Source: Promethearchaeota archaeon (lineage in GTDB: Archaea; Asgardarchaeota; Lokiarchaeia; Sigyniarchaeales; SOKP01). From it: a stretch of 64,000 nucleotides of DNA. Both the position numbers and the translations under genes were made by a program. A model generated the notes under the pieces. The model searched no databases. It worked only from the letters and a program-made list of their open reading frames with translations, and was not told the DNA's origin. Where the stretch lies: positions 56,064 through 120,063 of the forward strand of contig JBHLOC010000007.1 in assembly GCA_048940925.1 (NCBI GenBank). The letters run 5' to 3'. This document shows, piece after piece, positions 13,599 to 38,542 of the stretch. The stretch's first letter is position 1; the number at the start of each line of letters is the position of its first letter.

Positions 13599-16500
13599 AT
13601 GAAGCAAAAAAGAAGAATCTTAACTCTTATAATTTTAGCTCTTATACTTTTTTCTTTTTCAAATATTCAATTCTTCCTTAAATTTTTTCCAAATTATCAT
13701 GATAATAATGAAGATGAGATATCTGAATTAAATTCTGCGAAATATTGGCCAAATTTAAATAGAATACATATAGATGATAGCAATACTTCTTTAAATTGGG
13801 CAACCACTGCTGCTAATAATGATTGGTGTAATGGTTCAGGAACTTGGAGTGATCCTTATATTATCAAAAATGTAATTATAGATGGTCAGGAGAGAGAAAG
13901 TTGCATTTTAATTAAAAATTCAAATGTTTTCTTCATAATTGAAAATTGTACAGTCTACAATACTGGTGATGAGGGTAAATTTTCTGAAGAACCAGGGATT
14001 AAATTAATCAATACTAATAATGGAACTTTTATAAGTAATAACTGTTCTCTAAATCATTATGGGATAAGATTATTCAACAGCGATAATAACACTTTTTTAA
14101 ATAATATGATAACTAAGAATGAATTTAAAGGAATAACACTTGAAGATAGTTCTAATAATACTTTTGCTGGAAATGAGATAAGTAACAATTATCTCGATGG
14201 AATAGTTTTGGAATCAAATAGTGATCATAATAATATTTCTCAGAATAAATTATACAATAACTTTGGAAGCGGACTAAGTTTGATGTCCGGTGATAATAAT
14301 ACAATAAACAATAATGATATTTTTAAGAACAGAGAATATGGCATATTTCTTGAAGCCGGTCGTGAAAATACTATAAAAGAGAATGCAATGAAAAAGTGTG
14401 GAATTGGTATTTCTCCATCTGAAGAAATAAATACAAATATTATCGATACATCAAATACTGTGAATGGTAAAACTTTTTACATATATTTTAATCAGACAGA
14501 TTTAGATAATTCTGATTTTTCTTCCCCTAGACTAGCCGGGCAAATTATACTAATAAAATGTAATGATTCAATAATTTCTAATTTTAATCTTTCTCAAACG
14601 TCAATTGGATTAATCTTATATGAATGCCAAAATAATACAATATCGAATAACCTTGTTAATAATTGTACCAAATCTGGATTCTATCTGAACTTTTGTAACA
14701 ATAATACAATATATAACAATTCAGTAAATTATAATTTTGATGGTATAGAATTATTCGGATGCATTAATACGAGAATTAATAGAAACAACGCAACAAATAA
14801 TAAATGGAATGGGATAAAATTATCTGAAAATTGTGTTTTTAATATAATTCATGGGAATAATGCTTCCAATAATATCGAAACGGGAATATATACTGAATAT
14901 TGTGAAAGTAATAACATCACTAAAAATCTTGTACTTAATAATGAAAGAGCAGGAATAAGAATAAAAGCAAGCCACTTTACTTTAATTCAAAACAATACCG
15001 CAAATAACAATATCAATACTCGTGTCATTAATTTTGGTGTTGGAATTCAAATAGGAGAAACAGGTTCTTTTGAACAAAGTAATAACAATACAATTACTGA
15101 AAATATAATGAATAATAATAGTTATGTGGGATTGTTTCTAGATGGAAAAAATAACACAATAACAAAAAACAATTTTACTAATTGTGGTCTAATTTTTGGT
15201 TACTATTCAGATATAACTACTATTGATGACTTTAGTTCCCAAACAATTGATAGATCTAATCTAGTAAACAATAAAATTCTTTACTATTATTTTAATTCTA
15301 CCCACTTAAGCAATGATAACTTTTCTAATGCGGGACAAGTGGTCTTGGTCAGATGTAATGATTCCCTAATTTCTAATTTGCAATTAGAACGAGCTAGCCT
15401 ACCAATATCTTCATACTATTGTGATAACATTACTATTTCCAATAACAATCTTACAGAAAATACTTTTAGTGGAATTTATTTAATTCAAAATAGTAATTCT
15501 AATATCTCAAATAATCAATTAAATACAAATATAAATATTTATTTAGAGGTTTCAACTGTGATCACATTTGGATTTGGTATATATTTAGAAGACTGTTATA
15601 ATTGTAATTTTACATTCAATAATGCTACTAATAATGGATATGGAATCTATTTAAAGGATAGCAATAATATTCTCATAAAAAATAACACTTTTTATGATAA
15701 TAATATCGCAGGGATTAGTATTTTAGCAAATCAACCAGGAAAATGCGATGATATTAATTTTTCAGCTAATTACATGAGAAATTGTGGTGTATATATTTAT
15801 GAATCCCCATACTTACAAAACTCTAAATTATATATTGATAAAACAAATTTAATTAATAATAGACCACTTCATTATTTTTCTAACACTAATAGCTTAAAAT
15901 CGAGTGATTTTATAAATCCTGGGCAGATTATACTATTAAATTGTAATAATTCAGAAATTTCAAATCTTAGTTTTTCTAGATGTACAATAGGTATTTCTTT
16001 ATTTTATTGCCACAATGCATCTGTTTATAACATTAATTCCTCAAAAAATTCAATGTATGGATTTGTGTTGGTTCTAAGTAATAATTGTCATCTGTTCAAC
16101 AATACAGCATCTCAGAATCTTTTTGGAATCTTCAATGTGTTTTGTTTTAATAATACTTATACGGGAAATACCTTGAAGAATAGTAAATCGATATTTATAG
16201 ATAATTTATATTTCGGAGGAGGCATTTGTAGTATGTGGTACAATGATAATCTAAATATTGTCCGAAATACTTTTGAAAACTGCTCTAATGGAATTATGAT
16301 ATATTTAGAAGGACCTGGGATTTTTTTTAATGTCTCTGATAATTTATTAGATAATAATATTCAGTATGGTATTTGGTTAAAAAATTGCCATAATAGCACA
16401 TTTACAAAAAACAAAATTCAAAATAATGGAATTGGAATATATTTAGACTTCTACTCTGATAATAGTAATAATAGTTTTTTGTACAATAACTTAAATGGGA

Positions 16501-18392: not shown

Positions 18393-18441
18393 AATAGACA
18401 TTGATATTTTTAAATGATAATATCTAAAAAAACATAAAGCT

Positions 18442-18454
18442 AAAAGTTTAATTA
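18442..18454 (+). promoter_or_regulatory. Possible archaeal BRE/TATA element
   Basis: AAAAGTTTAATTA about 50 nt upstream of the 18502 start. A similar AAAAGTTTAATAT lies at about 13512-13524, upstream of 13599. Weak evidence in AT-rich DNA. Confidence 0.3.
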
Positions 18455-18501
18455 TTAACTTCTGTTAAAGAATAATAATAGAAAAATAATGTGAATCAAT
18501 T

Positions 18502-20082
18502 ATGGTTGATAGAGTAGTACCATATCTAATTAATATGGATGAAGTAACTCCTGTCCGCTCTCAAGCATCATTATTAAATGAATTAGCAATGGCGTTAATT
18601 GAGTGTATATCAATTAATAGTAAAAAACTAAAAAAATTAGGCAAAATATCTAAAATTTCAACAGCATTTTGGCCAGTTCGTTTAGTCCCGTTGAGTGATA
18701 CGAGAGCATGCGTATTTAGTTATCTATTAAACAAACAAGAGAAGTTAAGTGTTGGTAAATGGGCGCAGATGCCTCCAAAACCAGAAAACATTATTAAGGG
18801 AGCAGATCCAGAATCATTTTTAAGCTCATTACAAAATTATAATAATACTTATTTAAAAAAAAGCAAAAATTTTAAACGTGGAACTGTAATACAAGAAGCT
18901 TTATTTAATGCTAGCGAAGTTGAGTATTTTCAGAATTTTTTCTTAAACCAATATAGTTTAGGTTCTCATTCAACACCTTATTTTCTATTAGAAGGTGGAC
19001 CTATCGCAAAAAGTGTAAATCAAACCAAAATTGTTCCAGAAATTATTGAGTTTGTCTCTCAAAAAGATATTGAAATACTTGATAAAATTGAAGACGGTAT
19101 TATGAAATTATGCGAACGGTGGGTTCAAAAAGGCTCTAAGGAGGTTGATAAAATAAGAGATACTAAAGTTGATACAAGTGAAGAAGAAAAGAATTTATCA
19201 ATTCTAAATAAAGAATTGCAAGCAGAAAAAGAAGAAGAAATAGAAAAAACACCAGAAGAACTAGTCAAAATAGGAAAGTACAAGGTAAATGATAAAACTG
19301 GAGAATTAAATAATGATCTTAGCTCACTTAAAAATAGTGTTGATGGCATGAAAAATGCTATTAATCAAAGAGATCTTTTTTTAGTAGAAGAAGGATTAAA
19401 AGAAATTCAACTAAAGTATCAGGAATTAGGAAATTCAATCAGTCGCTACAATACTGAAATTACACAATTAAGAAAAAATATCCAACGTGAGATTTCTGAC
19501 ACTGAAAGAGCAAAACAACAAAGAGTCCGAGAATTAGAACGAAAAAAAGCTGAAGTGGAAAAACAAATAGAAGCTAAACATTCTGGTTTAAGCAGAGATT
19601 TAACTTCCGCAGAAGATATCATAGCAGCTATAAAAATTGAAAAACAATCTTGTTTAGATAATCTTGAATCTGTAAAAGATATAGAAATGACGAATGTTCA
19701 GAATTTCTTTAATAGCTATTCACTTGCATTAAAGACACAAAATGTTATAGTTGGTATCCCGATTTATATCTTCTATTTCGTAGATCCTAATACAAATAGG
19801 ACTACAGAAAGATCTCCTGTACTTCCTATATTGATTGAAAAAGGGAAAACCGTAAGCACTAAAGTTAATGCAAGTTTCAGGCAGAAATTACGAAATCTAA
19901 TGAATAAGGATAATGCAATGATAGATTTGGTTGAAACTCAAGGCGATAAAAATAATATAATGGAAATAAAAAATCTAGACACTCGACTTGAAGATGCAAT
20001 TAATGATTTGCGAATTCGAAAGATATTGAAAAAAGGTCAAGCTGAAACCGCTAAAGATTTAATTGCTAATCTTATCTGGTAA
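18502..20082 (+). CDS. Hypothetical cytoplasmic protein with long central coiled coil
   Basis: Heptad-rich E/K/Q/L region (about aa 190-400) flanked by globular termini (FWPVRLVP; VGIPIYIFYF); no TM and no Walker motifs. Confidence 0.8.
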   Translation: MVDRVVPYLINMDEVTPVRSQASLLNELAMALIECISINSKKLKKLGKISKISTAFWPVRLVPLSDTRACVFSYLLNKQEKLSVGKWAQMPPKPENIIKGADPESFLSSLQNYNNTYLKKSKNFKRGTVIQEALFNASEVEYFQNFFLNQYSLGSHSTPYFLLEGGPIAKSVNQTKIVPEIIEFVSQKDIEILDKIEDGIMKLCERWVQKGSKEVDKIRDTKVDTSEEEKNLSILNKELQAEKEEEIEKTPEELVKIGKYKVNDKTGELNNDLSSLKNSVDGMKNAINQRDLFLVEEGLKEIQLKYQELGNSISRYNTEITQLRKNIQREISDTERAKQQRVRELERKKAEVEKQIEAKHSGLSRDLTSAEDIIAAIKIEKQSCLDNLESVKDIEMTNVQNFFNSYSLALKTQNVIVGIPIYIFYFVDPNTNRTTERSPVLPILIEKGKTVSTKVNASFRQKLRNLMNKDNAMIDLVETQGDKNNIMEIKNLDTRLEDAINDLRIRKILKKGQAETAKDLIANLIW

Positions 20083-20101
20083 ATCTTTTTTTTATTTTTT
20101 T
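20083..20101 (+). terminator. Possible archaeal oligo-T terminator
   Basis: Two long T-runs directly after the stop of 18502..20082. Confidence 0.4.
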
Positions 20102-20165
20102 AAATTTAAGAATTTTAAGGGTTTCTATTTATTTTAAACTCTTTTTTTAAAATATTACATAAATT

Positions 20166-20349: not shown

Positions 20350-20518
20350 GATAACATTCTTTTGTTAAAAATTGAATAATAATAGTAGCTACTTAGGAGA
20401 CATGGATGCATGTCCATTGAAAGAAAGTTTTAAATATATTTGTTACAGCATTTAACTTAAAACCTTTATTTAATTATAAAAATAATTTGTTTTAAAATTT
20501 AACAATTGGGAGAAATTC

Positions 20519-23047
20519 ATGAAATTAGGCAAAAATTTACTAATTGCAATAATATTAGGTTCATTGTTAATGATAACTAAACCTATATTCAAAGTTAATG
20601 ATAACTTTTGTGATAATAATTATGTTCCAAACACAATGGAAGAGAAGATTTCTACATCAAATATTCCCCCAATACGCACTACTGAACCTCCTCGTGAAGA
20701 AACGGTCTGGATGACAGGAAGTTATAATTCTCCAACTCAATTTCTTCCATGGAGTGCTCAATTACCCCCAGGTGCAGATGCTGGTATGTATGAAGCTTTA
20801 TTCGGTTATAATAGTGTAACTAAGACACTTGTTCCGTGTATAGGTATTAGTTATTCATGGAGTGTAACTGGTAATAGTATTACTATTGATCTAAATCCTC
20901 TTGCTAAATGGTCTGATGGTTCACCTATTCAGGCTGATGATGTAGTTTATAGTTATGAATTAGCCTCAAATCAAACTAGATACAGAAAGGATTTTACAGC
21001 GAGGTTTATTGATCTTGTTGAAGTAGATACGGATACTGTTCGATTTGATATTAATACAACAGCAGGTTATAACTTTAGTAGGCAAGTTGAAATTTGGATT
21101 ATGTATAATATTCCAATTGTACCTAAACATGTATGGTCTCTAATTGTTGCTGATAAGGGTACTAATGATTTTATAGGAATTGGTTATCAATATGATTGGT
21201 TTGATTCAATAGATGTTCCTAACGAATGGAAAGTGATATCTGGACCTTATGCTCCTGTTTATCGAAATGCATCAAAAACTACTTGTGCATATCAGTATAG
21301 AGAGGATTGGTGGGGTGCTGGAATCCTTTACCAAGATCTTCCTAATGCAGCTGAAGATCCACCAAAATATATAGGAACAATTAGATTAACTTCTAATATT
21401 GAACAAAACCTCGCCTTGTTGCAAGGAGATGTTGATTTACATGCGAGTTATTATTATCATATTTGGGAAATCTGGGAAGATGCTACTCCGTCAGATCCTG
21501 GGTATTATATCAGTTGTTGGTATGATCATGATCCCCCTTATCAATTAGCTATTGGCCCTCTTATAACTCTTGCACCCAATCATCTTCTTGCAGATTCTCC
21601 ATTAGGAGTAAAAAATTTCAGAGAAGCCTTAGCTTATGCTATTAATTATACATCTATCCCTGCTGCAGCCGCTTCTGGATATTGGTCAAAATCTAAACCT
21701 GGATATATTGATAATAATAGCGCATTACATGCCCCATATTATAATGGGTCTATTACAGCAAAATATCAAAAATTTTTGAATGTCACTAATGCTATTGTAT
21801 TATTACAGAGCATTCCTGGTATGACAGGATCTGTAGCATCTGGATGGACATATAACGGACATGCTGTTGGACCTTACGAAGCAATTGTTCCTATTGGTTG
21901 GAGTGATGTTATTGCATATACAGAAATGGTTTGTAATGATATTACTGACAACTTAGGAATTACTATTACAGCCACACAAGTTGATTTTGAAACTATTTTT
22001 CAATCTTCGATAGAAAATAATAATTTTGATTTTGCTATATTTCGTGTCGGAAACCGAATATCAGATCCTCCTCAAAGATTTCTTGATTATATGAGAGGAA
22101 CACACTTATGGAACAAAAATGCAACCAATTGGAATAATCCTACATTTGAAGCTCTATGGCAGACGCTTGAAACTGCAAATGAAACAACTTATGCAAAGAA
22201 TCTGAACCTAATGCAAGAAATTTTAGCTGAAGAAGTTCCAGAAATTCCTGGGTTTGTTGATGGATATTGGTATGCTTTTAGTGAATATTTTTGGGAAGGT
22301 TGGGCAAGCGAAGCAAATAAATTTCAACAACTTGTTACAACTTGGACAGATAATCAGTTTGTAATTAAAACAAGATTAATGTTGAACTTAAAATCAATAG
22401 ACCGCAAAAGTCCGATGATTACTATTAATTCACCAAGTGAAAATCAAGTATACGGTGAATTTGCACCAAATTTTAACGTGGAAGTATATGATGCTAATCT
22501 TGATACGATGTGGTACACCATAGATGGAGGATTTACTAACATTACATTTATTACCAATGGAACAATCGATCAAAATAATTGGAGTGCTCAAGTTGACGGT
22601 CCTATGGAGATAATTTTTTATGCAAATGATACATTAGGTCATATAAACTCCAATCAAGTCATAATCAATAAAGATACTACAGTCCCTGAAATAATTATCA
22701 ATTCTCCATCTCCCGATCAAGTATTCAGAGGTAATCCTCCTGAATTCAGTTTATCTATAAATGAAAGTAATTTAGAATCAATTTGGTATACATTAGATAA
22801 TGGATTAGTGAATATTACATGTGAGATATCAGGACAAATTGATCAAAATTATTGGAATGCGCTAAAACCGGGAAGTTATACCCTTAGATTTTATGCTAAT
22901 GATACAATGGGTTATAAAGGATTTTCGGAAGTATCTATTAAGAAAAAAGCAAGGGTAATTTCTGTGTATAATCCAATAATTATATCTATAATTACTGTAT
23001 TGGTAACTATAACTATTAGGTATAAAATAAAGAAAAAATTGAAATAA
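20519..23047 (+). CDS. Family-5 ABC solute-binding protein (oligosaccharide/peptide-binding type) with two Ig-like stalk repeats and C-terminal membrane anchor
   Basis: MYEALFGYN, AKWSDGSPIQADDVVYSY, SGPY, FREALAYAIN and MQEILAEEVPEIP; WYTIDGG...FYANDTLG repeats; C-terminal ISVYNP + TM + basic tail. Confidence 0.85.
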   Translation: MKLGKNLLIAIILGSLLMITKPIFKVNDNFCDNNYVPNTMEEKISTSNIPPIRTTEPPREETVWMTGSYNSPTQFLPWSAQLPPGADAGMYEALFGYNSVTKTLVPCIGISYSWSVTGNSITIDLNPLAKWSDGSPIQADDVVYSYELASNQTRYRKDFTARFIDLVEVDTDTVRFDINTTAGYNFSRQVEIWIMYNIPIVPKHVWSLIVADKGTNDFIGIGYQYDWFDSIDVPNEWKVISGPYAPVYRNASKTTCAYQYREDWWGAGILYQDLPNAAEDPPKYIGTIRLTSNIEQNLALLQGDVDLHASYYYHIWEIWEDATPSDPGYYISCWYDHDPPYQLAIGPLITLAPNHLLADSPLGVKNFREALAYAINYTSIPAAAASGYWSKSKPGYIDNNSALHAPYYNGSITAKYQKFLNVTNAIVLLQSIPGMTGSVASGWTYNGHAVGPYEAIVPIGWSDVIAYTEMVCNDITDNLGITITATQVDFETIFQSSIENNNFDFAIFRVGNRISDPPQRFLDYMRGTHLWNKNATNWNNPTFEALWQTLETANETTYAKNLNLMQEILAEEVPEIPGFVDGYWYAFSEYFWEGWASEANKFQQLVTTWTDNQFVIKTRLMLNLKSIDRKSPMITINSPSENQVYGEFAPNFNVEVYDANLDTMWYTIDGGFTNITFITNGTIDQNNWSAQVDGPMEIIFYANDTLGHINSNQVIINKDTTVPEIIINSPSPDQVFRGNPPEFSLSINESNLESIWYTLDNGLVNITCEISGQIDQNYWNALKPGSYTLRFYANDTMGYKGFSEVSIKKKARVISVYNPIIISIITVLVTITIRYKIKKKLK

Positions 23048-24798: not shown

Positions 24799-24824
24799 AC
24801 TTTATTCATTTTTAATACTTTTAA

Positions 24825-27812
24825 ATGGTAATATTATTGCTTAAGAATAAAAAAAAGAATTTAACACTCTTATTTAGTTTTTTTATCCTATTCATTATCA
24901 TCAATCTTAACAGCCGTTATAATAATTTCAATATACCTGTTAATAAAAATTTTGAAACCGATAAAAGAACTAATTTGAAAGAGCTTAAGACATCAACGAT
25001 CTATTATGAAATTACAATTAACGATCTTCTAACATCTAATACTACAAATATGGGTAATTGGACCTGGGCAAGAACTCAACCTTGGTGTACTCAAGGATCA
25101 GGAACTTCAGAAGACCCTTATGTAATTGAAAACAGCACATTTACAAATTCTTCATTATATGGTGCAGGTCTTAGTATTTATAATTCAAGAAGATATTTTA
25201 TTATCAGAAATTGTACATTTAAAGATGCGCCTTTTGGTATTCATCTTTGGTATGCCACAAATGGGACAATTATTAAAAATAAAATGCATAACAACTGGGA
25301 AGGTATATGGGCAATTAGAAGTGATCAGAATATTATATCAGAAAATAATGTAACCAACAATGGTATTGGCATTCGAATGTGGATGGGATGTGATAATATC
25401 AATATCACTAAAAATATCGTATCAGAAAGCAGTTATCTTGGAATTTATGTGGATTATGGCCACAATTGTCTTATTTCAGAAAATATAGTAAATGACAATA
25501 AAGCTAATATGGGGATTGGTTTATATAATTATAGTTCTAATAATTTGGTTGTAGATAACACTTTAGAGCGAAATGTAGATGGAATTAATATAGGCTGGGC
25601 TTATAATACTACGATTGCTAACAATATTTTGAATGAAAATAATCATACTGGACTTTATATGAAATTGAGTAAAAATATCACAATTTTAGGTAACATTTTA
25701 GAGGATAATAATGTTAGTGGAATTATTTTGGAAAGTGGTAACAATAACACAATTACAGGAAATGTAATAGAACGTAATAACATCAGTGGAATTGAGACTA
25801 TGGGTGGGTTTAATTTTAACCATATCTATGAGAACTACTTTATCATGAATGGAAAACATGCAATTGAGAAAGGATCGAATAATGACTGGAATAGCACTAC
25901 AATTGGTAATTATTGGGATAATTATACAGGTTTAGATCCAGATCAGGATGGAATTGGTAATATCCCTTATAATATTAGTTTATCGCCTTTAATCCAAGAC
26001 CATTTACCAATTGTAGACAATGAACCGCCATTTATAAGAATTGATTCCCCAAAGCCTGGTGATAAATTTAGTTTTAATGCCCCAAGGTTTAGTGTTTCTA
26101 TAATTGGTGAAGATCCTTATTCTATGTGGTATACTTTGGATGGAGGGTTAAACAACTACACATTCACGGAAAATGGTAAAATAGATCAAACAGCTTGGGA
26201 TGCTCTACCCTCAAGTACAATTACTCTTAAATTTTATGCGCGTGATAAACCATGTAATATTGGGACTTCAGAGGTTTCTATAATAAAGGACATCGAAGTT
26301 CCAAACATAATAATTAATTCACCGAGTTCTAATGAAATTTATGGTAATAAAGCACCAAATTTCAAAATTTCCATTGATGATCCAAATTTGGATTCTATCT
26401 GGTATACTTTAGACAACAATCTAATGATTCTAACTTATGAAAAGAATGGTACAATTAGTCAAAATATATGGAATGGATTTGGAAATGGAACTGTTACTAT
26501 CAAATTTTATGCAAATGATACTCTCGGAAATTTAGGTACAGCAGATATTAATATAAGAAAAGACATAATTTCACCCATAATAACAATTAAAAACATTGAG
26601 GAAAATCAACGATTTGGTAAGAAGCCTCCATCTTTTAATGTCTCTATAAATGAACCAAATTTAAACCTAACATGGTATTCAATATATAATGGTACTCAAT
26701 GGTCTCAAGAGATCATTTTTACAGAACTAATAGGCAATATCGATAAAGTATTATGGAAATCATTACCTAAAGGAAATGTAACAATTAGGTTTTACGCTAG
26801 CGACTTAGCAGGGAATATTGGGTTTGAAGAGATCTTATTCATTAAAAGCTATAAAGAAATCCTCTCTCCAACTGGAGTAGTTATTTTAATCACTGTCATT
26901 GCTATTAGTTCTACAGTGGTAATAAGTGGCACGATTGTATGGAAAAAGAAAAAATTCTCAAGGAAATTAAAAGAAGGAGGAAAAATAGAAGATAAAAAGA
27001 TACCTAAAATTAAAAACATAGTCCAAAAAAGAATGATATTAATTGATAACTTAATCCAAGAACAAAAATTAAAGGAGGCGATTAAACATTTAAATCAGAT
27101 TAGAGAGATAGCCCAAATTTATGGATTAAAATACTTATTGGCGAATATCCAAGAAAAGTTAGACGAGTGTAAAAAAATAGAATTAGATACAATTAATTCA
27201 ATTAAAAAAGCAATAAACGATCTAGGAAGGAAAAATCTTCGCTTTCAAATTGTAGAAATTAGTAAAAAAAGTGGTGTTAAAGATGAGAAGATAATAGAAG
27301 ACATAATTCATGAGATGATTAAAAATAAAGAAATTTCTGCTAAATATTATCCAAAGTCTGACACAATCGTATTAAGTCTAATGTTATTTCCTGTATTAAA
27401 GCTTAAAGAAATGAAGGAAATCAACTTGTTTTTAAGTTATTCAACCCTAGATTCAGAATACTTTCAGATACCCAAAATTGTTAGATATTTAGAAGAATAT
27501 CCTGAAATTGGTAGGGTCATGTTTTGGGAAGCTGATAGTAAAGCAAATATAGTAGAATATATGGAAAAGACTTTGAGAATTACAAATGTGTTTGTATTGT
27601 TTTGTTCTGAAAATTCAATGAAGTCTGCTTCTGTAGAAGGAGAATGGCACGCAGCCTATCAAATGAACAAGGAAGGACTTCTAAAAGTTATATCTGTTTA
27701 TGAAGATAAAGACCATATTCCAAGGTTATTATGGCCTTTATCAAATGTTAAATACTTAAAGGAAGATTTTCATGAATTTATTCAAACTCTTTTTAGAGTA
27801 ATTATGGAATAA
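24825..27812 (+). CDS. TIR receptor 3: beta-helix ectodomain, three Ig-like repeats, TM, PCI-like winged helix, TIR
   Basis: WCTQGSGTSEDPYVIEN cap, beta-helix, GNYWDNY..DGIG; three WY...FYAxD repeats; TM GVVILITVIAISSTVVISGTIVW + KKKK; TIR LFLSYS...SASVEGEWHAA. Confidence 0.88.
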   Translation: MVILLLKNKKKNLTLLFSFFILFIIINLNSRYNNFNIPVNKNFETDKRTNLKELKTSTIYYEITINDLLTSNTTNMGNWTWARTQPWCTQGSGTSEDPYVIENSTFTNSSLYGAGLSIYNSRRYFIIRNCTFKDAPFGIHLWYATNGTIIKNKMHNNWEGIWAIRSDQNIISENNVTNNGIGIRMWMGCDNINITKNIVSESSYLGIYVDYGHNCLISENIVNDNKANMGIGLYNYSSNNLVVDNTLERNVDGINIGWAYNTTIANNILNENNHTGLYMKLSKNITILGNILEDNNVSGIILESGNNNTITGNVIERNNISGIETMGGFNFNHIYENYFIMNGKHAIEKGSNNDWNSTTIGNYWDNYTGLDPDQDGIGNIPYNISLSPLIQDHLPIVDNEPPFIRIDSPKPGDKFSFNAPRFSVSIIGEDPYSMWYTLDGGLNNYTFTENGKIDQTAWDALPSSTITLKFYARDKPCNIGTSEVSIIKDIEVPNIIINSPSSNEIYGNKAPNFKISIDDPNLDSIWYTLDNNLMILTYEKNGTISQNIWNGFGNGTVTIKFYANDTLGNLGTADINIRKDIISPIITIKNIEENQRFGKKPPSFNVSINEPNLNLTWYSIYNGTQWSQEIIFTELIGNIDKVLWKSLPKGNVTIRFYASDLAGNIGFEEILFIKSYKEILSPTGVVILITVIAISSTVVISGTIVWKKKKFSRKLKEGGKIEDKKIPKIKNIVQKRMILIDNLIQEQKLKEAIKHLNQIREIAQIYGLKYLLANIQEKLDECKKIELDTINSIKKAINDLGRKNLRFQIVEISKKSGVKDEKIIEDIIHEMIKNKEISAKYYPKSDTIVLSLMLFPVLKLKEMKEINLFLSYSTLDSEYFQIPKIVRYLEEYPEIGRVMFWEADSKANIVEYMEKTLRITNVFVLFCSENSMKSASVEGEWHAAYQMNKEGLLKVISVYEDKDHIPRLLWPLSNVKYLKEDFHEFIQTLFRVIME

Positions 27813-27975
27813 ATCCATTTAATTATAAACATAAATATATTAATTTCAGTATCTTAATCTAGATTTAGATAGTATTGATCAATGTGAAATCTCAAGAAAG
27901 TTAAATGTCTGTTTTTATTCTTATTAATTCAATTTCATACGAAATTATATGGCATTATGAAGGTAGAATAACAAT

Positions 27976-30936
27976 ATGATAAAAAGAAATAGATATTGTC
28001 TTGTTTTACTTTTTCTAATAGTTATATTTAATATTATTCCATTGATTAGATTCAATTTCAATGAACCTAATAAAAAAATTATTATTACTGATGAGGATTT
28101 TCATGCTAAAATCAATTCTGTAAAAACATCAAATCCAATAGTTTTATCGGACGGATTTGCGGGTATAGAATGGAATGATGATATTAGTCAAACTCCTTCA
28201 ATCGTCATAGATACTAATGGCACTATTCATGCAGTCTGGTCAGACTTTACTAATGGTCCGTGGGGTAATGATCCTGAGATAATGTATGCAAATTATTCCT
28301 CTTCACTTGGATTATCTTATGCTACAGTCATTTCTGATGGATATAATGGTGATTATTGGAATTCGGGTGGTAGCTATTTTCCAGATATTGCTATCGATAA
28401 TTATGGAAATATTCATGTTGTTTGGTATGATGATACTGATGGTCAATGGGGCACTGATGAAGAAATAATGTATGTGAATTACACATCTTCCGCTGGTTGG
28501 TCAAATGCCACTGTAATTTCGGATTTATATGGTGGAAGTGTATGGAATAATCGTTATAGCAGGGATCCTTCAATTGCTATAGATAATATTGGAGGAATTC
28601 ATGTTGTTTGGAATGATGATACTGATGGCGAATGGGGAACTGATACAGAAATAATGTATGTAAATTATACATCTTCCACTGGCTGGTCAAATGCTTGTGT
28701 CATTTCGGATTTATATGGCCAAATTAAATGGAATAATGATTTTAGTGAGAATCCTTCAGTTGCTGCTGATAATATTGGAGGAGTTCATGTAGTTTGGCGA
28801 GATCTCACTGATGGTCTATGGGGCACTGATCCTGAAATAATGTATGTAAATTATACCTCTGATTCTGGTTGGTCAAACATTACTGTAATTTCGGATGGAT
28901 TTGGGGATAAATATTGGAATAATGAGTGGAGTGACTATCCTTCAATTACAACAGATAATTTTGGAGGAATTCATGTTGCTTGGCAGGATGATACTGATGG
29001 TGAATGGGGAACTGATACCGAAATAATGTATTGTAATTATACATCCTCAAATGGATGGTCTAATGCTTCGGTTATCTCAGATTTATATGGAGGAATTGAA
29101 TGGAATGATGGTTATAGTGGTACTCCTTCAATTGCTACTGACAATATTGGAATAGTCCATGTAGCTTGGGTTGATGGAACTGCTGGTCCATGGGGAAGTG
29201 ATGGGGAGATAATGTATTGTAATTATACATCTTCAAATGGATGGTCTAATGCTACAGTAGTTTCTGACGGATTTGATGGGACATATTGGGATACAGGTGC
29301 GAGTGGTAATCCTTCAATTGCTATAGATAATGCTAGAACTATTCATATAGTATGGCAAGATGATTTTGCATTATGGTGGGGTCCTGATTCTGATATAGTA
29401 TATATTTTCATTGATAATATCGTTCCAGTTATTTCAATAAAAAATCCTACTCCAAACCAATTTTTCGGAATAGCTCCTCCAAATTTTAGTATAGAAATTA
29501 GTGAAGATCGTTTGGATAGAATTTGGTATATTTTGAATGATGATATAAAGACTTTTATATCTAAAAGCAATGGTACAATAAATCAAAATGTATGGGATAG
29601 AATTTATAATGGAACTATAACTATCATTTTTTATGCAAATGATACTGTAGGAAATTTAGGTTCTGCAAATGTTAAAATAAGAAAAGATTTAATTTCTCCT
29701 ATAATAATAATTAACAATATTGAAACGAATCAACGGTTTGGTAAAGAATCTCCATCTTATAGCTTATCTATAAATGAACCAAACTTAAACATATCATGGT
29801 ATTCAATATATAATGGTACTCATTGGTCTCAAGAGTTTATTTTTACTGAACTAGAAGGAAAAATTAATCAGTTATTATGGGATTCATTACCTAAAGGAAA
29901 TGTAACGGTTAGGTTTTATGCTAATGATTTAGCGGGGAATATTGGATTTGAAGAGATCTCAATTATTAAAAGCTATAAACAAAATAAATTTCCTATTGAA
30001 TTAATTGCTTTAATTTCAGTTATTGCTATTGGGTCCACAATAGTATTAAGTGGTGTAATAGTACGAAAGAAGAAGATTTTTACTAAGATATCAAAAAAAG
30101 AAGGAAAGATTGAAGCTAAAGAGTTAATCAAAGATAAAAATTATCTCCAAAAAAGAAGGTTGTTAATAGATGATTTAATAAAAAGAAATGAATTTAAAGA
30201 GGCGATTAAAAATTTAAACCAGATTAAGGAAATAGCCCAACGTTATGGATTAAAATATCTATTGACGAATACCGAAGAAAAAATAGATGAATGTAAAAAA
30301 TTAGAATTGGAAACTATTAAATCCATTAAAGAGATAATAAAAAATTTAGGTAGGAAATATATTCGCGTACAAGTTGTAGAGATTAGCAAAAAAAGTGGCA
30401 TTAAAGATGAAAAAATGATAGAAGATATAATTCATGAAATGATTCAGAAGAAAGAAATTCTTGCCAAATATTATTCTAGTTCTAAAACAATCACATTTGG
30501 CCTAATGGTAATCCCTGTATTGAAGCCAAAGTTAAAAAGGAAAAATGATGTATTTTTAAGTTATTCAACCTTAGATTCAGAATACTTTCAGATACCCAAA
30601 ATTGTAAAAAGTTTAGAAGAATATCCTGAAATCGGCAGGGTTATGTTTTGGGAAGCGGATAGTCAAGCAAATATCGTAGAATATATGGAAAAAACTTTGA
30701 GAATTACGAATGTTTTTGTATTGTTATGTTCTGAAAATTCTTTCAAGTCTGAATCGGTAAAAGGTGAATGGCAAGCAGCTTATCAGATGGATAAAGAAGG
30801 CCTTTTGAGAATTATCCCTGTTTATGAAGTTCAAGACCACATTCCCCGGTTATTATGGCCTTTACCAAGTGTCAAATATATAAAAGATGATTTTGATATA
30901 TTTATTCAAAATCTTTATAAAACAATTTTAGAATAA
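27976..30936 (+). CDS. TIR receptor 4: 7-repeat beta-propeller ectodomain, two Ig-like repeats, TM, PCI-like winged helix, TIR
   Basis: Seven 62-aa repeats; TM LIALISVIAIGSTIVLSGVIV + RKKK; TIR VFLSYS...SESVKGEWQAA. Confidence 0.88.
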   Translation: MIKRNRYCLVLLFLIVIFNIIPLIRFNFNEPNKKIIITDEDFHAKINSVKTSNPIVLSDGFAGIEWNDDISQTPSIVIDTNGTIHAVWSDFTNGPWGNDPEIMYANYSSSLGLSYATVISDGYNGDYWNSGGSYFPDIAIDNYGNIHVVWYDDTDGQWGTDEEIMYVNYTSSAGWSNATVISDLYGGSVWNNRYSRDPSIAIDNIGGIHVVWNDDTDGEWGTDTEIMYVNYTSSTGWSNACVISDLYGQIKWNNDFSENPSVAADNIGGVHVVWRDLTDGLWGTDPEIMYVNYTSDSGWSNITVISDGFGDKYWNNEWSDYPSITTDNFGGIHVAWQDDTDGEWGTDTEIMYCNYTSSNGWSNASVISDLYGGIEWNDGYSGTPSIATDNIGIVHVAWVDGTAGPWGSDGEIMYCNYTSSNGWSNATVVSDGFDGTYWDTGASGNPSIAIDNARTIHIVWQDDFALWWGPDSDIVYIFIDNIVPVISIKNPTPNQFFGIAPPNFSIEISEDRLDRIWYILNDDIKTFISKSNGTINQNVWDRIYNGTITIIFYANDTVGNLGSANVKIRKDLISPIIIINNIETNQRFGKESPSYSLSINEPNLNISWYSIYNGTHWSQEFIFTELEGKINQLLWDSLPKGNVTVRFYANDLAGNIGFEEISIIKSYKQNKFPIELIALISVIAIGSTIVLSGVIVRKKKIFTKISKKEGKIEAKELIKDKNYLQKRRLLIDDLIKRNEFKEAIKNLNQIKEIAQRYGLKYLLTNTEEKIDECKKLELETIKSIKEIIKNLGRKYIRVQVVEISKKSGIKDEKMIEDIIHEMIQKKEILAKYYSSSKTITFGLMVIPVLKPKLKRKNDVFLSYSTLDSEYFQIPKIVKSLEEYPEIGRVMFWEADSQANIVEYMEKTLRITNVFVLLCSENSFKSESVKGEWQAAYQMDKEGLLRIIPVYEVQDHIPRLLWPLPSVKYIKDDFDIFIQNLYKTILE
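28141..29415 (+). repeat. Seven tandem 186-bp coding repeats (propeller blades)
   Basis: Consensus VISDxxGxxxWNxxxSxxPSIAxDNxGxIHVVWxDxTDGxWGxDxEIMYxNYTSSxGWSNAT, also visible at DNA level (gatactgatgg..aatgggg; gaaataatgtat). Confidence 0.9.
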
Positions 30937-31077
30937 ATCCAATTTTTTATAACAAAAGTATATAAGATTCAATATCTTAATGTTGATTTAAAAAAATTAG
31001 TATAAATGAAATCTCAAACAAATTATAGACTATTTTAATTTGTAAACTTTCGAATTTAATTCAAATTTAGTGTTTCT

Positions 31078-34017
31078 ATGAAATTAAGTATTAAAATAGA
31101 GAAAATGAAAAGAATCACCCTTATTTTATTATCTATGATTGTCATATTTAGCATTGTTTCATTAATCAAATTTGACACAAAAGAACCTATACACATAAAA
31201 AATGGAAATGATGATGATTTTAATATTGAATTAAGCTCTGTAAAATATACAAATGGAACAATTATTTCTGATGGGTTCAATGATGTGTATTGGAATGATC
31301 AACTAAGTAGTTCTCCTTTAATTGCTATTGATATCTATGGAAACCTCCATGTTGTGTGGCATGATGATACTGATGGTCCATGGGGTGTTGATTCTGAAAT
31401 AATGTATGCAAAATATTCAATATCAGCGGGTTGGTCTAATGTTACTGTAATTTCGGATTTGTATGGCTGGAATGATGGTGATAGTGTAAAGCCTTCAATT
31501 GCTACGGATTCAAATGGTAATGTTCATGTAGCATGGGAAGATGATACTGATGGTCCATGGGGTATTGACTCTGAAATAATGTATGCTAATTATTCTTCAT
31601 CTGTTGGGTGGTCTAACCCTGTTGTAATTTCAGATTTATATGGCGGAGTTGAATGGAATGATGGGAATAGTGGGAATTCTTCGATTGCAATAGATAATGA
31701 TGGAGATATTTATGTAGTCTGGGATGATAACACAGATACAATATGGGGTCCCGACTCAGAAATAATGTTAGCAAAATTTTCACCTTCAATTGGTTGGTCT
31801 AACGCTAGTGTGATCTCAGATAATTTTGGGGGTCAATCTTGGAATGATGGCTGGAGTAGAGATCCTTCAATTGCTATCGACAACGATAAAAACATTCATG
31901 TTGTATGGCAAGATGATACTGACCATGGTTCGTGGGGTACTGATACTGAAATTATGTATAGAAAATATGTTTATTCATGGTCTATGTGGACTAATGATAC
32001 TGTAATATCGGATACTTGGTGGGTTCAAAGTTGGAATGATGGTTATAGTGGAAATCCTTCAATTGCAATAGGTGAGTTTGGATTCCCACATATTGTATGG
32101 ATTGATGATACTGATGGCGAATGGGGCACTGATATTGAAATAATGTATATAGCGCAACCCTATGATAATGCTACTGTAATCTCGGATGGATTTGAAAGTG
32201 TATATTGGAATGATGATTTCAGTGGTTATCCTTCAATTACTACCGATATTGATGGAAACGTTCATGTAGTATGGTTCGATAATACTGATGGCTCGTGGGG
32301 GATTGATTCTGAAATTATGTATGTAAAATATTCTTCCTTAAGTGGGTGGTCTAATGCCACTGTAATTTCGGATGGATTTGGAGGCATATATTGGAATGAT
32401 GATAATAGTAAGAATCCTTCTATTATAACAGATCAGAATGGAAATATCCATGTAGTGTGGGAAGATGATACAAATGGAAAATGGGGTATGGATACCGAGA
32501 TAATGTATATCTTTACCGATTATCCCGCTCCAGTTATTACTATAAATAATCCAAGGTCAAATGAGATTTTTAGATCTCTAGCACCAAGCTTTAATATTAC
32601 TATTAAAGAGTCAAATTTAGACACGTTTTGGTATACCCTTGATGGAGGTATAACAAATATTACGATCACAGAATTCATAGGAACGATTAATCAAATAGAG
32701 TGGGACAAGATTGGAAGATCTACTGTGGAATTAACTTTTTATGCGATTGATGTTGTGGGAAATATTGGTTTTCAATCAGTTATTATTGAAAAAGCTATTG
32801 ATTATTGGCAAGTAAATCCAATTATTATTGATGACAAGGGAACTGGAGATTTCACTTGGTCTGAAGTAGCAATGCAGGGATGGTGTACCGGTTCTGGAAC
32901 TTCAACAGATCCTTATATTATTGAGTTTTTAAAAATTGATGGGCAGAATGGCTATAATTGTATTGAAATTAGGCATTCTAAAGTTTTTTTCGTAATTGGA
33001 AAATGTCTTTTGTTTAATTCTGGAACAGGATCAAGATTTGCAGGATTTAATTTATTCAATGTTTCTAATGGAATTTTGACTGATAATAATTGTTCTTATA
33101 ACAATGGATACGGCACAATTATAATGAATTGCTCATATATCACTATAACAGAAAATGAAGTGAATAATAATGAAATTGGTGGGATATATTTAGAATCTAG
33201 CCGTTTTATCAACATTTCAAATAATAAAGATACTATAAGTTACAATGGATTATATGGAATCTATTTAATATTTAGTAATGATAATACGATTACAGACAAC
33301 ACTATAAACTACAATCAGAATGGTATTTACTTGTATAGATCTAATGATAATACTATAATAGGAAATAAACTTATTGGGAATAAAGTACCAATTACAGAAA
33401 TTGAATGTAGTGGAAATATTATTAAAGGCAATAGCATTGGTATAAAGAAATTTCCCATTGAATTTTTAATAATAATTGGTACTCTAATAGGTATTACAAT
33501 AATATCTAGTGCTATTATTTTATTGAGGAAAAAGATCTTTAAGAAATTATTTCCTAAAAAGGGTGGAATAATCAAAGAGAAAGGCAAAAGAATTTCTGTA
33601 ACTAAAATTGGAGAAAAGCATAAGCTTAATGTGTTTCTAAGCTATTCTACTATAGATTCTGGATATTTTCAGATACCAAAAGTAGTACAACATTTAGAAA
33701 AGTATCCTGAAATTGACAAAGTTTCAAGCTGGGAAGCTGATAGTAAGGAAAATATAGTAGAATTTATGGGAAAAACTTTAAAGGACACTGATGTATTTGT
33801 GTTATTTTGTTCTGAAAATTCTGTTAATTCTGAATCTGTTAAAGGTGAATGGCAAGCAGCTTATCAATTGAATAAAGCTGGTCTTTTAAAAATAATTCCT
33901 GTATACGAAATTCAAGAACATATTCCTCGATTGTTATGGCATATATTAAATGTAAAGTATTCAAAAAAAGATTTCAATGGATTTATTGAAAATCTTTATC
34001 ATGAAATATTAAGATAA
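31078..34017 (+). CDS. TIR receptor 5: 7-repeat beta-propeller, Ig-like domain, beta-helix, TM, TIR (no winged helix)
   Basis: Seven repeats of the same family as receptor 4; WCTGSGTSTDPYIIE cap then beta-helix; TM FLIIIGTLIGITIISSAIILL + RKK; TIR VFLSYS...SESVKGEWQAA. The real start may be the ATG at 31105. Confidence 0.88.
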   Translation: MKLSIKIEKMKRITLILLSMIVIFSIVSLIKFDTKEPIHIKNGNDDDFNIELSSVKYTNGTIISDGFNDVYWNDQLSSSPLIAIDIYGNLHVVWHDDTDGPWGVDSEIMYAKYSISAGWSNVTVISDLYGWNDGDSVKPSIATDSNGNVHVAWEDDTDGPWGIDSEIMYANYSSSVGWSNPVVISDLYGGVEWNDGNSGNSSIAIDNDGDIYVVWDDNTDTIWGPDSEIMLAKFSPSIGWSNASVISDNFGGQSWNDGWSRDPSIAIDNDKNIHVVWQDDTDHGSWGTDTEIMYRKYVYSWSMWTNDTVISDTWWVQSWNDGYSGNPSIAIGEFGFPHIVWIDDTDGEWGTDIEIMYIAQPYDNATVISDGFESVYWNDDFSGYPSITTDIDGNVHVVWFDNTDGSWGIDSEIMYVKYSSLSGWSNATVISDGFGGIYWNDDNSKNPSIITDQNGNIHVVWEDDTNGKWGMDTEIMYIFTDYPAPVITINNPRSNEIFRSLAPSFNITIKESNLDTFWYTLDGGITNITITEFIGTINQIEWDKIGRSTVELTFYAIDVVGNIGFQSVIIEKAIDYWQVNPIIIDDKGTGDFTWSEVAMQGWCTGSGTSTDPYIIEFLKIDGQNGYNCIEIRHSKVFFVIGKCLLFNSGTGSRFAGFNLFNVSNGILTDNNCSYNNGYGTIIMNCSYITITENEVNNNEIGGIYLESSRFINISNNKDTISYNGLYGIYLIFSNDNTITDNTINYNQNGIYLYRSNDNTIIGNKLIGNKVPITEIECSGNIIKGNSIGIKKFPIEFLIIIGTLIGITIISSAIILLRKKIFKKLFPKKGGIIKEKGKRISVTKIGEKHKLNVFLSYSTIDSGYFQIPKVVQHLEKYPEIDKVSSWEADSKENIVEFMGKTLKDTDVFVLFCSENSVNSESVKGEWQAAYQLNKAGLLKIIPVYEIQEHIPRLLWHILNVKYSKKDFNGFIENLYHEILR
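31261..32520 (+). repeat. Seven tandem ~180-bp coding repeats (propeller blades)
   Basis: Same consensus as 28141-29415, with small indels in units 2, 4 and 5. Confidence 0.9.
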
Positions 34018-38498: not shown

Positions 38499-38542
38499 AT
38501 TTTATTATCATTTATTCTTGTATATTCCAATAGTGAAATTTT

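Follow-up and report, generated by a model that had tools for sequence, protein, structure and literature searches.

What does a group of neighboring membrane-bound TIR proteins do in an archaeon? In the window, by which we mean the whole 64,000-nucleotide stretch of DNA analyzed here, a Lokiarchaeia-type Asgard archaeon encodes five such proteins (T1-T5) in neighboring genes, all on the + strand. They had been proposed from the sequence to form a repertoire of receptors with a Toll-like topology. We analyzed the locus, its relatives and the gene g8 downstream of it.

Gene order and integrity of the locus

The five predicted TIR genes are all present: T1 (13599..18392) encodes a 1597-aa membrane TIR protein, T2 (23278..24798) a 506-aa, T3 (24825..27812) a 995-aa, T4 (27976..30936) a 986-aa and T5 (31078..34017) a 979-aa TIR protein. 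However, the array is not uninterrupted, because two + strand genes without a TIR, g2 (18502..20082; 526 aa) and g3 (20519..23047; an 842-aa surface protein), lie inside the interval. The next gene downstream of the array, g8 (34485..37073, + strand), encodes an 862-aa soluble protein. The T2-T3, T3-T4 and T4-T5 junctions are each bridged by contigs from the runs of other studies. Thus, the array is no assembly chimera. Metabolic genes flank the array (SDRs, a TPP enzyme and a lysine-fermentation-like cluster), and no defense-island context was found around it.

The g2 protein has a coiled-coil middle and no Pfam family. It was considered as a third component of the system and rejected, since g2 is a single-copy core gene that is present in 57/68 genomes of the window's GTDB family, some of which lack the TIR family or g8. 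Its adjacency is therefore synteny, and g2 probably lies inside the array but outside the system.

Membrane topology

Membrane segments were called by a Kyte-Doolittle scan, and their orientation was judged from the positive-inside rule and the asymmetry of sequons and charges. T1, T3, T4 and T5 each have a K/R-rich start ahead of a single N-terminal hydrophobic segment, and a single internal TM segment that is followed by 5-7 K/R within 15 residues. This is the arrangement of signal segment, ectodomain, single TM and basic stop-transfer run that had been predicted for four genes. T2 lacks an ectodomain and contains four TM segments instead. K and R together account for 4-7% of the outside parts versus 16-19% of the inside parts, and the cytoplasmic parts contain 0-1 N-x-S/T sequon. 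The predicted richness in sequons was found in the ectodomains of T1 (52 versus 31.3 ± 4.8 in composition-matched shuffles), T3 (26 versus 13.9 ± 3.2) and T4 (18 versus 10.3 ± 2.8) but not in that of T5 (14 versus 12.4). The TM scan, the stop-transfer charges and the two asymmetries agree with the proposed orientation: the TIR of T1-T5 is predicted to be cytoplasmic, with, in the four single-pass proteins, a type I topology as in Toll-like receptors.

The TIR domain

Each of the five proteins ends in Pfam TIR_2 (PF13676; 39.1-56.0 bits against a cut-off of 28). The domain is located at aa 1470-1591 of T1 (nt 18006-18371), aa 379-500 of T2 (nt 24412-24777), aa 869-978 of T3 (nt 27429-27758), aa 859-986 of T4 (nt 30550-30933) and aa 852-962 of T5 (nt 33631-33963). 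TIR_2 was also above the cut-off in 41/42 relatives. With T1 as the reference, the last 158 residues of T2-T5 show 48-54% identity, and 55 columns of this tail alignment are invariant, among them the motifs quoted in the original prediction (FLSYST..D, W..DS..NIV..M, C.E.S..S..V..EW.AA and VYE). In the TIR tree, T3, T4 and T5 form one clade, and the TIR of T1 groups with g2-adjacent orthologs of other genomes.

An AF2 model of T4 aa 697-986 had a pLDDT of 87.9 overall and about 94 across the TIR. Foldseek gave 46 matches to this model at E<=1e-3. All of them are TIR domains except several entries of CSN3 (COP9 signalosome), which align to the juxtamembrane part and not to the TIR. The top matches were MyD88, SPARTA TIR-APAZ, Hydra TRR-2, SARM1, TLR2, AbTir, RPS4, ThsB and Cat1 (TM 0.6-0.77 by target), and the isolated TIR chains among the matches ranged from 0.46 to 0.77 by target. 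A non-TIR flavodoxin-like fold had been named as the result that would speak against a TIR; the T4 model matches solved TIR domains instead.

At the NADase catalytic position, 48/48 family members have the Glu of VK[DG]EW, which corresponds in alignments to the conserved Glu of Cat1 ('WDEL') and of the 9m0n TIR ('VKKE'). Yet >70% of all TIR domains carry a Glu there, and this residue alone is no predictor of NADase activity (PMC7075850). The eukaryote-type PF01582 had no match in T1-T5 at E<=0.01, and only 2/42 relatives matched it, at 1e-4. With the ThsB_TIR Pfam, T2 scored 24.1 bits versus a cut-off of 21.2, and T4 and T5 were below the cut-off. The PADLOC models, run against T1-T5, g2 and g3 (E<=0.01), gave no TIR, ThsB or Rst match; the sole match was PDC-M34B on the T1 linker (1.4e-8).

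Ectodomains and cytoplasmic linkers

T1 consists of an anchor (aa 7-25), many NosD/beta-helix repeats with an acidic repeat region, and a TM segment (aa 1293-1311); a weak HEPN_Swt1-like segment was detected at aa ~1337-1446 (E 0.005). In T2, the four TM segments (aa 9-128) are followed by a cytoplasmic helical region, a PCI-like winged helix and the TIR; its orthologs (686-838 aa) occur in loci L007 and L009-L012. T3 has an anchor (aa 12-30), NosD/beta-helix and three Ig-like (Big_13-like) modules, a TM segment (aa 684-702) and a PCI-like region, and its residues 436-995 are 62% identical to residues 417-986 of T4. T4 carries an anchor (aa 8-26), about seven propeller-like repeats of ~56 aa, Ig-like modules and a TM segment (aa 677-695); its cytoplasmic part is helical and includes a PCI-like winged helix before the TIR. 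T5 combines an anchor (aa 13-31), propeller-like repeats that are 52% identical to the T4 N-terminus, an Ig-like module, a beta-helix, a TM segment (aa 797-815) and a short linker to the TIR.

The g3 protein possesses a signal anchor, an SBP_bac_5 solute-binding domain, an Ig-like stalk (40-44% identical to the T3 and T4 stalks), a C-terminal TM segment and a 10-residue basic tail. In L009-L012, T2-like genes are immediately preceded by genes like g3, and SBP-TM-TIR fusions occur (L001 and L019). By gene order and domain content, g3 is a candidate ligand-binding partner of T2.

Among 42 relatives, the ectodomain types were NosD/beta-helix (27), SBP_bac_5 (5), Peripla_BP_6 (3) and LVIVD (1); NCBIfam profiles added only beta-helix and NosD repeats. 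The idea of a conserved output domain behind divergent ectodomains was thus borne out, as mosaic, shuffled ectodomains are joined to a conserved tail. With 53-85% identity across MAGs, the cytoplasmic tail is conserved more than any other part of the proteins; together with the 55 invariant columns, it therefore fits a constrained functional output. The PCI assignment (PF01399) was at 13.9 bits in T4, below the cut-off of 22, and at 23.9 bits in a paralog on contig C10 and 24.2 bits in an LRR protein encoded on contig C55. The T4 model matched the PCI of CSN3 with a Foldseek E of about 1e-4 but an rmsd of 18-21.

Paralogs and distribution

Eight close paralogs were found in this genome, and three paralogs, on contigs C55, C10 and C59, sit apart from g8. 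The C55 paralog is an SBP-TM-PCI-TIR gene adjoined by the LRR-PCI gene. C10 carries a soluble LRR-PCI-TIR paralog of the same TIR subtype, which is also found on TIR-only proteins. No LRR family was detected by Pfam in T1-T5. Thus, the predicted lack of LRRs is true within the window but not for the whole genome, where LRRs occur only in the soluble paralogs.

Clustered at 50% identity, the TIR subfamily falls into at least 175 groups. It was present in 36/68 genomes of the window's own GTDB family, in 5 more genomes that belong to three other families of its class, and in 1/224 of the other genomes of the phylum that were searched. A pan-Asgard spread, suggested by MAG labels such as 'Hermodarchaeota', 'Thorarchaeota' and 'Odinarchaeota', was rejected because contig L013, judged by position and open-frame length, corresponds to a genome of the window's own genus (G049:C54:4532-4930); the census is concentrated in one GTDB family. 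In the viral contigs scanned, only two distant TIRs were detected (26% identity). By this census, the subfamily is a Lokiarchaeia-specific, lineage-restricted expansion.

These results bear on the suggestion that the array might illuminate the origin of eukaryotic TIR receptors. Since the domain falls under the prokaryotic TIR_2 type rather than PF01582, and the family is lineage-restricted, an ancestry of TLRs is not supported. The topology shared with Toll-like receptors is most simply convergent because the family is mostly found in one GTDB family. Convergence is indicated by the TIR subtype as well as by the distribution.

The downstream gene g8

The g8 protein contains a RelA/SpoT-like nucleotidyltransferase domain (aa ~50-230; Pfam RelA_SpoT, 36.9 bits), TPR, a SLOG domain (aa ~513-690) and a longin/roadblock domain (aa ~708-843). 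The RSH core residues R56, K58, K66, D83, G86, R88, E162, Q164 and T167 are conserved across 15 homologs, and the RSH acceptor-site motifs (GYxSxH and H..YK) are degenerate in g8 and its close orthologs. LSDAT_prok scored 26.6 bits on the excised aa 480-862 (cut-off 25.4), 23.9 bits on the whole protein and 28.5 bits on the homolog L069. The assignment is precomputed for most g8 homologs, the Atlas lead was 26/30, and G150, G153 and E160 are invariant. The structural matches of the g8 SLOG (VIA) were 1rcu (LOG), TRPM8/TRPM MHR, DprA and the ThsA SLOG with 3'cADPR, with Z of 8.2-9.5 in a low-pLDDT region. The AF2 model of aa 480-862 has a mean pLDDT of 57.8 and only its longin/roadblock part is trustworthy, so these matches give weak support. 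By profile, modeled Rossmann-like fold and Gly-rich motifs, this part of g8 belongs to the SLOG domains.

A TIR gene of the family lies beside g8, or one gene (g2) off, in 8/8 close g8 orthologs with a usable flank, that is, with an upstream flank or, in one case, a convergent neighbor. These TIR genes come from several TIR clades. Part of the adjacency among close relatives is synteny inherited around g2, a core gene. Distant g8 homologs (25-41% identity) adjoin four other TIR architectures: a TPR-roadblock-TIR gene directly upstream of homologs L067, L068 and L070, a TIR-STAND gene in an overlapping operon with P0253, a TIR-LRR gene 4.6 kb from P0237, and a 555-aa TIR gene 4 kb from P0242. 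At about 8-11 TIR genes per ~4.5 Mb, TIR adjacency within 6 kb is expected by chance in ~3% per case. The g8 family is thus found beside five TIR architectures at 25-41% identity, and therefore synteny is no explanation. On the other hand, g8 is no universal partner of the TIR family: of 27 genomes of the sister genus g4, 19 were found to carry the TIR family but only 3 to carry g8.

In Thoeris I, the SLOG domain reads the TIR-made 3'cADPR, and in type VIII the TPR is the proposed cADPR reader (preprint 10.64898/2025.12.03.692087). By analogy, the gene neighborhood supports a Thoeris-like pair of a TIR sensor and a SLOG-gated effector, and g8 is a candidate for both the reader and the effector of the TIR signal.

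Proposed mechanism and alternatives

We propose, with a probability of about one half, that T1-T5 are membrane sensors that signal through a TIR-made messenger to g8, following the logic of Thoeris with a membrane-bound sensor. The in silico basis is the topology, the TIR fold, the invariant Glu, the shuffled ectodomains, the lineage expansion and the recurrent TIR/g8 neighborhood. The variable module would face outward, as a carbohydrate-type beta-helix, an Ig-like stalk or propeller-like repeats, or as a solute-binding domain supplied by g3 and in paralogs; the conserved TIR would face inward, in most members behind the helical PCI-like winged-helix module. Binding of a ligand or particle outside would lead to clustering, or oligomerization, of the receptors. 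The TIR domains would then meet and, by an NADase or cyclase activity, cleave NAD+ to an ADP-ribose-derived messenger. TIR-TIR association is common to all known active TIRs. The messenger may bind the SLOG (or TPR) of g8 and switch on the RelA/SpoT-like nucleotidyltransferase, and the activity of g8 would produce a stress or growth-arrest response. The biological role could be the sensing of viruses or that of partners and the environment.

The proteins may instead be stand-alone suicide receptors, in which surface engagement, for example virus docking, causes the TIR to deplete NAD+ as in SARM1 and SPARTA without making a messenger, and g8 is an unrelated syntenic neighbor. Both of these NAD+-depleting TIRs are among the closest structural matches, the Glu at the catalytic position does not vary, the TIR family occurs without g8 in many genomes, and the three paralogs on C55, C10 and C59 are not beside g8. 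However, the recurrence of the g8 family beside five TIR architectures, and its possession of both a SLOG (for which sensing is shown in Thoeris I) and TPR (for which it is proposed in type VIII), make this rather unlikely.

We regard it as unlikely that the TIR is a non-catalytic scaffold, as in classical TLR/IL-1R, with clustered TIR and PCI-like modules recruiting soluble adaptor paralogs. The soluble C10 paralog has the same TIR subtype and a PCI above the cut-off, the C55 receptor-like gene adjoins an LRR-PCI gene, the juxtamembrane module resembles the PCI of CSN3, which is an assembly domain, and the top structural matches include MyD88 and TLR2. The adaptors would be, for example, the C10 LRR-PCI-TIR or TIR-only proteins, acting through TIR-TIR or PCI-PCI contacts. 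Against this stand the TIR_2 type of the domain, the invariant Glu, the SLOG neighbor, which hints at a small-molecule signal, and the fact that neither a death-domain nor a kinase partner was found in the window. The known studied examples of the prokaryotic TIR_2 type are enzymes.

Finally, the proteins could mainly be structural or adhesive (in the envelope, or in attachment to syntrophic partners or substrates) with a TIR tail for anchoring or turnover. Archaeal surface proteins typically combine such beta-helix/NosD, Ig-like and propeller modules with many sequons and a C-terminal TM; g3 shares the stalk and TM but lacks a cytoplasmic domain, and the flanks are not defense genes. This reading is nevertheless unlikely, given that the cytoplasmic tail is the most conserved part, that the same TIR subtype occurs on soluble LRR and TIR-only proteins, and that the family is linked with g8.

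Returning to the membrane-sensor reading, the receptor part of the proposed repertoire gains support from the SBP_bac_5 and Peripla_BP_6 ectodomains in paralogs and relatives and from the conserved SLOG neighbor; the immune, pattern-recognition part is more tentative, and there is neither a defense island nor a PADLOC TIR match. A further, tentative claim, which we consider possible but doubtful, is that this would be the first prokaryotic outside-in TIR pathway, running from a Lokiarchaeia surface-receptor repertoire through an NAD-derived messenger to a SLOG-gated RelA/SpoT-like enzyme, analogous to animal TLR signaling and independently evolved. Its targets would be viruses, partner cells or polymers at the envelope, and the repertoire would be germline. 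The characterized prokaryotic TIR systems known to us all sense intracellular events. In the literature searched, whose coverage is incomplete so that novelty is unproven, we found neither a prokaryotic (including Asgard) ectodomain-TM-TIR receptor nor a RelA/SpoT-SLOG partner of a TIR. If true, TIR signaling would be coupled to surface recognition outside animals, a RelA/SpoT-like enzyme would join the known Thoeris-type effectors, and there would be a concrete signaling pathway for Asgard archaea, whose surface biology (protrusions, syntrophy and viruses) is little known. A TLR-like topology is, however, no proof of ancestry.

Comparison with known systems

Rst proteins are small and are not known to have large ectodomains. 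Rst_2TM_1TM_TIR, a bacterial defense system listed by DefenseFinder (PMC11291487), shares with the array a superficial likeness, a membrane-anchored TIR with a multi-TM partner that recalls g3/T2 or T2. Its PADLOC models, however, match none of T1-T5 at E<=0.01.

RSH-fold enzymes (toxSAS-type and small alarmone synthetases, e.g., CapRel and FaRel) are known defense or toxin effectors. Like them, g8 keeps the RSH core RxKxxxSxxxK, DxxGxR and ExQxRT. In contrast to toxSAS, g8 has no antitoxin-like neighbor that we could see, its acceptor-site motifs are degenerate, and it is fused to TPR, SLOG and longin/roadblock domains.

With Toll-like and IL-1 receptors, the array proteins share a signal sequence, an ectodomain, one TM and a cytoplasmic TIR, as well as a multigene repertoire with variable ectodomains. 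The Ig-like modules recall IL-1R, and the modeled TIR fold matches TLR2, MyD88 and Hydra TRR-2. They differ in that LRR ectodomains are absent from the membrane members of the window, the TIR is TIR_2 and not PF01582, a PCI-like module is inserted between the TM and the TIR, and no death-domain adaptor was seen.

From Thoeris, the locus differs in its membrane TIRs with large ectodomains, as Thoeris sensors are soluble and cytoplasmic, and in its RelA/SpoT-like effector g8, versus SIR2, Macro, caspase or TM effectors. Further differences are the added longin/roadblock domain of g8, the lack of a PADLOC match and of a defense island, and the Asgard host. The likeness to Thoeris is that a TIR gene adjoins the gene for a SLOG protein, here also with TPR, that the catalytic-position Glu is conserved and T2 exceeds the ThsB_TIR Pfam cut-off, and that several TIR genes lie beside one effector gene, as reported for type III.

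Organization of the TIR gene array

The array interval contains seven same-strand open reading frames, and an eighth (g8) follows immediately. Five of the seven, T1 (13599-18392), T2 (23278-24798), T3 (24825-27812), T4 (27976-30936) and T5 (31078-34017), all on the plus strand, end in a Pfam TIR_2 domain (39-56 bits; cut-off, 28). Over the last 158 residues, T2-T5 are 48-54% identical to T1, and 55 columns are invariant among the five proteins. Thus, the original prediction of five genes with a closely related terminal TIR domain was borne out, and every motif that it quoted lies among these columns. Two further plus-strand genes are located between T1 and T2: g2 (18502-20082) and g3 (20519-23047), which encodes an SBP_bac_5 domain, an Ig-like stalk and a C-terminal transmembrane (TM) helix. 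g8 (34485-37073, plus strand) encodes a RelA/SpoT-like (RSH) nucleotidyltransferase with TPRs, SLOG and longin/roadblock domains. The T2-T3, T3-T4 and T4-T5 junctions are spanned, at 0-1 differences, by contigs from other studies' sequencing runs, which shows the tandem array to be genuine rather than an assembly artefact.

Directly downstream of g8, positions 37236-42455 carry genes for a class-III aminotransferase, a beta-keto acid cleavage enzyme (BKACE), a methyltransferase, a weakly zinc-ADH-like protein and a lysine-2,3-aminomutase. This run looks like a lysine-fermentation-type cluster. A further gene (42553-44319) encodes a 588-aa product whose TPR region is MalT-like. It also shows weak similarity to RPN7 and, at its C-terminus, a weak match to a RING-type zinc finger (zf-C3HC4_3, E 6e-4), a domain mix that is eukaryote-like.

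Membrane topology

By Kyte-Doolittle hydropathy, T1, T3, T4 and T5 have a common layout: a K/R-rich start leads into a single hydrophobic segment at the N-terminus; a long hydrophilic stretch follows, and then a strongly hydrophobic helix with 5-7 K/R in the 15 residues after it. In T2 there are four TM segments and no ectodomain, and the K/R rule used for the other four places its C-terminus inside. The ectodomains contain 4-7% K+R, 10-18% Asn and 14-52 N-x-S/T sequons, as against 16-19%, about 4-5% and 0-1, respectively, in the cytoplasmic parts. These indirect indicators agree, and the TIR domain is predicted to be cytoplasmic, as had been proposed. Four sequon-rich ectodomains had also been claimed: compared with composition-matched shuffles, sequons were in excess in T1, T3 and T4 (z about 2.7-4.3) and not in T5.

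The TIR domain and the juxtamembrane region

T4 residues 697-986 were modelled with AlphaFold2 from a 48-sequence alignment (mean pLDDT 87.9; about 94 across the last 130 residues). In a Foldseek search of the PDB, the C-terminal region matched solved TIR domains, namely those of MyD88, SPARTA TIR-APAZ, Hydra TRR-2, SARM1, TLR2, AbTir, RPS4, ThsB and Cat1, with TM-scores by target of 0.6-0.77. The modelled domain is therefore assigned as TIR, and these matches exclude a non-TIR flavodoxin-like fold. All 48 aligned sequences have the Glu of the VK[DG]EW motif, and in profile alignments this residue coincides with the conserved Glu in Cat1 and in the PDB 9m0n TIR. According to a published survey, a Glu at this position is common across TIR domains and alone does not predict NADase activity (PMC7075850).

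The segment that links the TM helix to the TIR domain in T2-T4 folds into helical hairpins and a winged helix, which resemble the CSN3 PCI domain in Foldseek; paralogs encoded at other loci of the genome score above the Pfam cut-off for PCI. The corresponding segment of T1 (aa 1337-1446) is unlike this module. Its matches are to PDC-M34B, a candidate-defence model of PADLOC (E 1.4e-8), and, more weakly, to HEPN_Swt1 (E 0.005); by eye, the usual HEPN His is apparently absent.

Domains and gene neighborhood of g8

The RelA/SpoT-like domain of g8 scored 36.9 bits, and TPRs were detected. The longin/roadblock domain was recognized from VIA Z-scores of 10-11 against TRAPP, longin and Asgard Roadblock structures. 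For SLOG, the excised part scored 26.6 bits against LSDAT_prok (cut-off, 25.4), the homolog at locus L069 was above the cut-off, and a precomputed match exists in most homologs. In an Atlas search, 26 of 30 clusters were LSDAT, and structural matches to LOG, TRPM, DprA and ThsA-SLOG had Z 8.2-9.5, in a region modelled with low confidence. The RSH core residues of g8 are retained in 15 homologs; in g8 itself and in close orthologs, the motifs of the acceptor site are degenerate.

As an accessory gene, g8 was detected in 19/301 genomes and in 17/68 of the window's own GTDB family. All eight close orthologs with neighboring DNA have a TIR gene of the family beside them or one gene (g2) away. This adjacency could be inherited synteny. 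The link nevertheless recurs at far greater divergence, with different TIR architectures. At L067, L068 and L070, loci away from g2, a homolog with 39-41% identity to g8 has a TPR-roadblock-TIR gene (~470 aa) directly upstream. Among more distant homologs, P0253 (NUDIX-RSH-SLOG-RyR, 27%) is in an overlapping operon with a TIR-STAND gene, P0237 (36%) is 4.6 kb from a TIR-LRR gene, and P0242 (35%) is 4 kb from a 555-aa TIR gene; no TIR gene was found within 6 kb of P0254 (25%). In the window it is g8 that has the roadblock domain, and in the L067-type pairs it is the TIR protein; such migration between partner genes is typical of cooperating proteins.

Two metagenome contigs, L081 (554-7105) and L082, carry an overlapping operon of a NUDIX-RelA_SpoT-SLOG-RyR gene, a 47-aa ORF, a TIR_2-STAND NTPase and a 766-aa protein; a transposase comes next. 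The operon has the appearance of a compact relative, in soluble form, of the proposed TIR/RSH-SLOG system.

Distribution of the TIR family

The genome has eight close paralogs, three of them outside the window: an SBP_bac_5-TM-PCI-TIR protein (contig C55), a Peripla_BP_6-beta-helix-TM-TIR protein (C59) and a soluble LRR-PCI-TIR protein (C10). On C55, a direct repeat of 176 nt (86% identity; L001:2572-2747 and 9232-9407, 6660 nt apart) flanks a convergent pair of an LRR-PCI gene and the TIR paralog, which fits an inserted block. Soluble LRR proteins with distant TIR-like C-terminal regions are encoded on C18 (L005:5305-10085), where two are adjacent, and on C77 (L004:4913-6505); they matched the family HMM (E 7e-15 and 5e-9) and gave no Pfam TIR_2 match at E<=0.01.

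Pattern scanning across GTDB species genomes detected 51 loci, every one in an Asgard MAG (53-85% identity). Among 42 full-length relatives, Pfam identified TIR_2 in 41, NosD/beta-helix in 27, SBP_bac_5 in five, Peripla_BP_6 in three, LRR in three and LVIVD in one. By hydropathy, 19 complete ORFs have the anchor-ectodomain-TM-TIR layout, 14 have an internal TM only, six are of the 4-TM type, and the remainder are soluble or fragmentary. When 1.84 billion representatives were searched with a profile, 175 clusters reached E<=1e-30 and 602 reached E<=1e-10. Named members carry no labels other than "TIR domain-containing", "NosD domain-containing" or "ABC transporter substrate-binding protein".

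The TIR subfamily, with up to 11 copies per genome, was found in 43/301 sampled genomes of the phylum: the window's own, 36/68 others of its GTDB family, five from three further families of its class, and 1/224 of the other genomes. A pan-Asgard spread (Hermod-, Thor-, Odinarchaeota), suggested by NCBI labels, was rejected since the labels conflict with GTDB kinship. The MAGs of L013, L014, L031 and L035 are titled Hermod-, Thor-, Odin- or Hodarchaeota. The L013 contig, judged from position and open-frame length, corresponds to a genome placed in the window's own genus by GTDB kinship. The submitter labels of this MAG series look unreliable.

Evolution of the array

In the TIR-domain tree, T1 groups with g2-adjacent orthologs of other genomes (support 99/96) and T2 with 4-TM orthologs (97/94), and T3, T4 and T5 form a separate clade. 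Thus, the array consists of two older lineages and a lineage-specific tandem triplet. T3 and T4 have the stalk, TM and tail in common (62% identity), T4 and T5 the N-terminal repeat domain (52%), and beta-helix modules are common to T1, T3 and T5; the triplet is mosaic. In the closest sampled relative (g8 at 91% identity), the g2-g8 interval contains only one 188-aa TIR-only gene, and a TIR fragment is upstream of g2. The cassette thus has a fast turnover.

The 526-aa g2 product belongs to no Pfam family, and its middle part is a long coiled coil. Its gene is single-copy in 57/68 family genomes, with 55-81% identity in 53 of the 57 and distant copies (35-37%) in four genomes of the genus designated g3; this query found none outside the GTDB family. 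g2 looks like a family-specific core gene anchoring a variable TIR locus, and since some genomes have it without the TIR family or g8, we treated it as a locus anchor only. The gene g3 and T2, which follows it, may form a split receptor in which an SBP subunit would be paired with a TIR transducer of the 4-TM type. Pairs of this type recur in L009-L012, and fused SBP-TM-TIR forms are also known.

Proposed mechanism

Of the readings considered, a Thoeris-like two-part system with its TIR sensor shifted to the membrane has the best support. Engagement of the ectodomain would cluster the receptors, and the assembled TIR domains would convert NAD+ to an ADPR-derived messenger. The SLOG (or TPR) module of g8 would bind this messenger, and the RelA/SpoT-like domain would be turned on. 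In type I Thoeris, TIR-made 3'cADPR is bound by a SLOG domain, and in type VIII a TPR has been proposed as the cADPR reader (preprint 10.64898/2025.12.03.692087).

Three other explanations retain real weight: direct NAD+ depletion by the TIR domains, scaffold-type signalling via the soluble TIR/PCI paralogs, and a mainly structural role at the surface. We retain them because the genes flanking the array are metabolic, PADLOC gave no TIR model match, g8 is absent from most sister-genus genomes carrying the TIR family, three paralogs of the same genome are distant from g8, and all support for the two-part system is in silico.

Comparison with known systems

TLR and IL-1R have the same topology as the membrane TIR proteins of the window. 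However, the TIR domain here is of the prokaryotic TIR_2 type, the membrane members do not have an LRR ectodomain, and the family is lineage-restricted. Thus, convergence is the simplest reading of the TLR-like topology. In the literature searched, there was no description of a prokaryotic ectodomain-TM-TIR receptor or of a RelA/SpoT-SLOG partner for TIR proteins. Thoeris is the closest in logic, and the system in the window differs from it in its membrane sensor, its RSH-type effector and its archaeal host.
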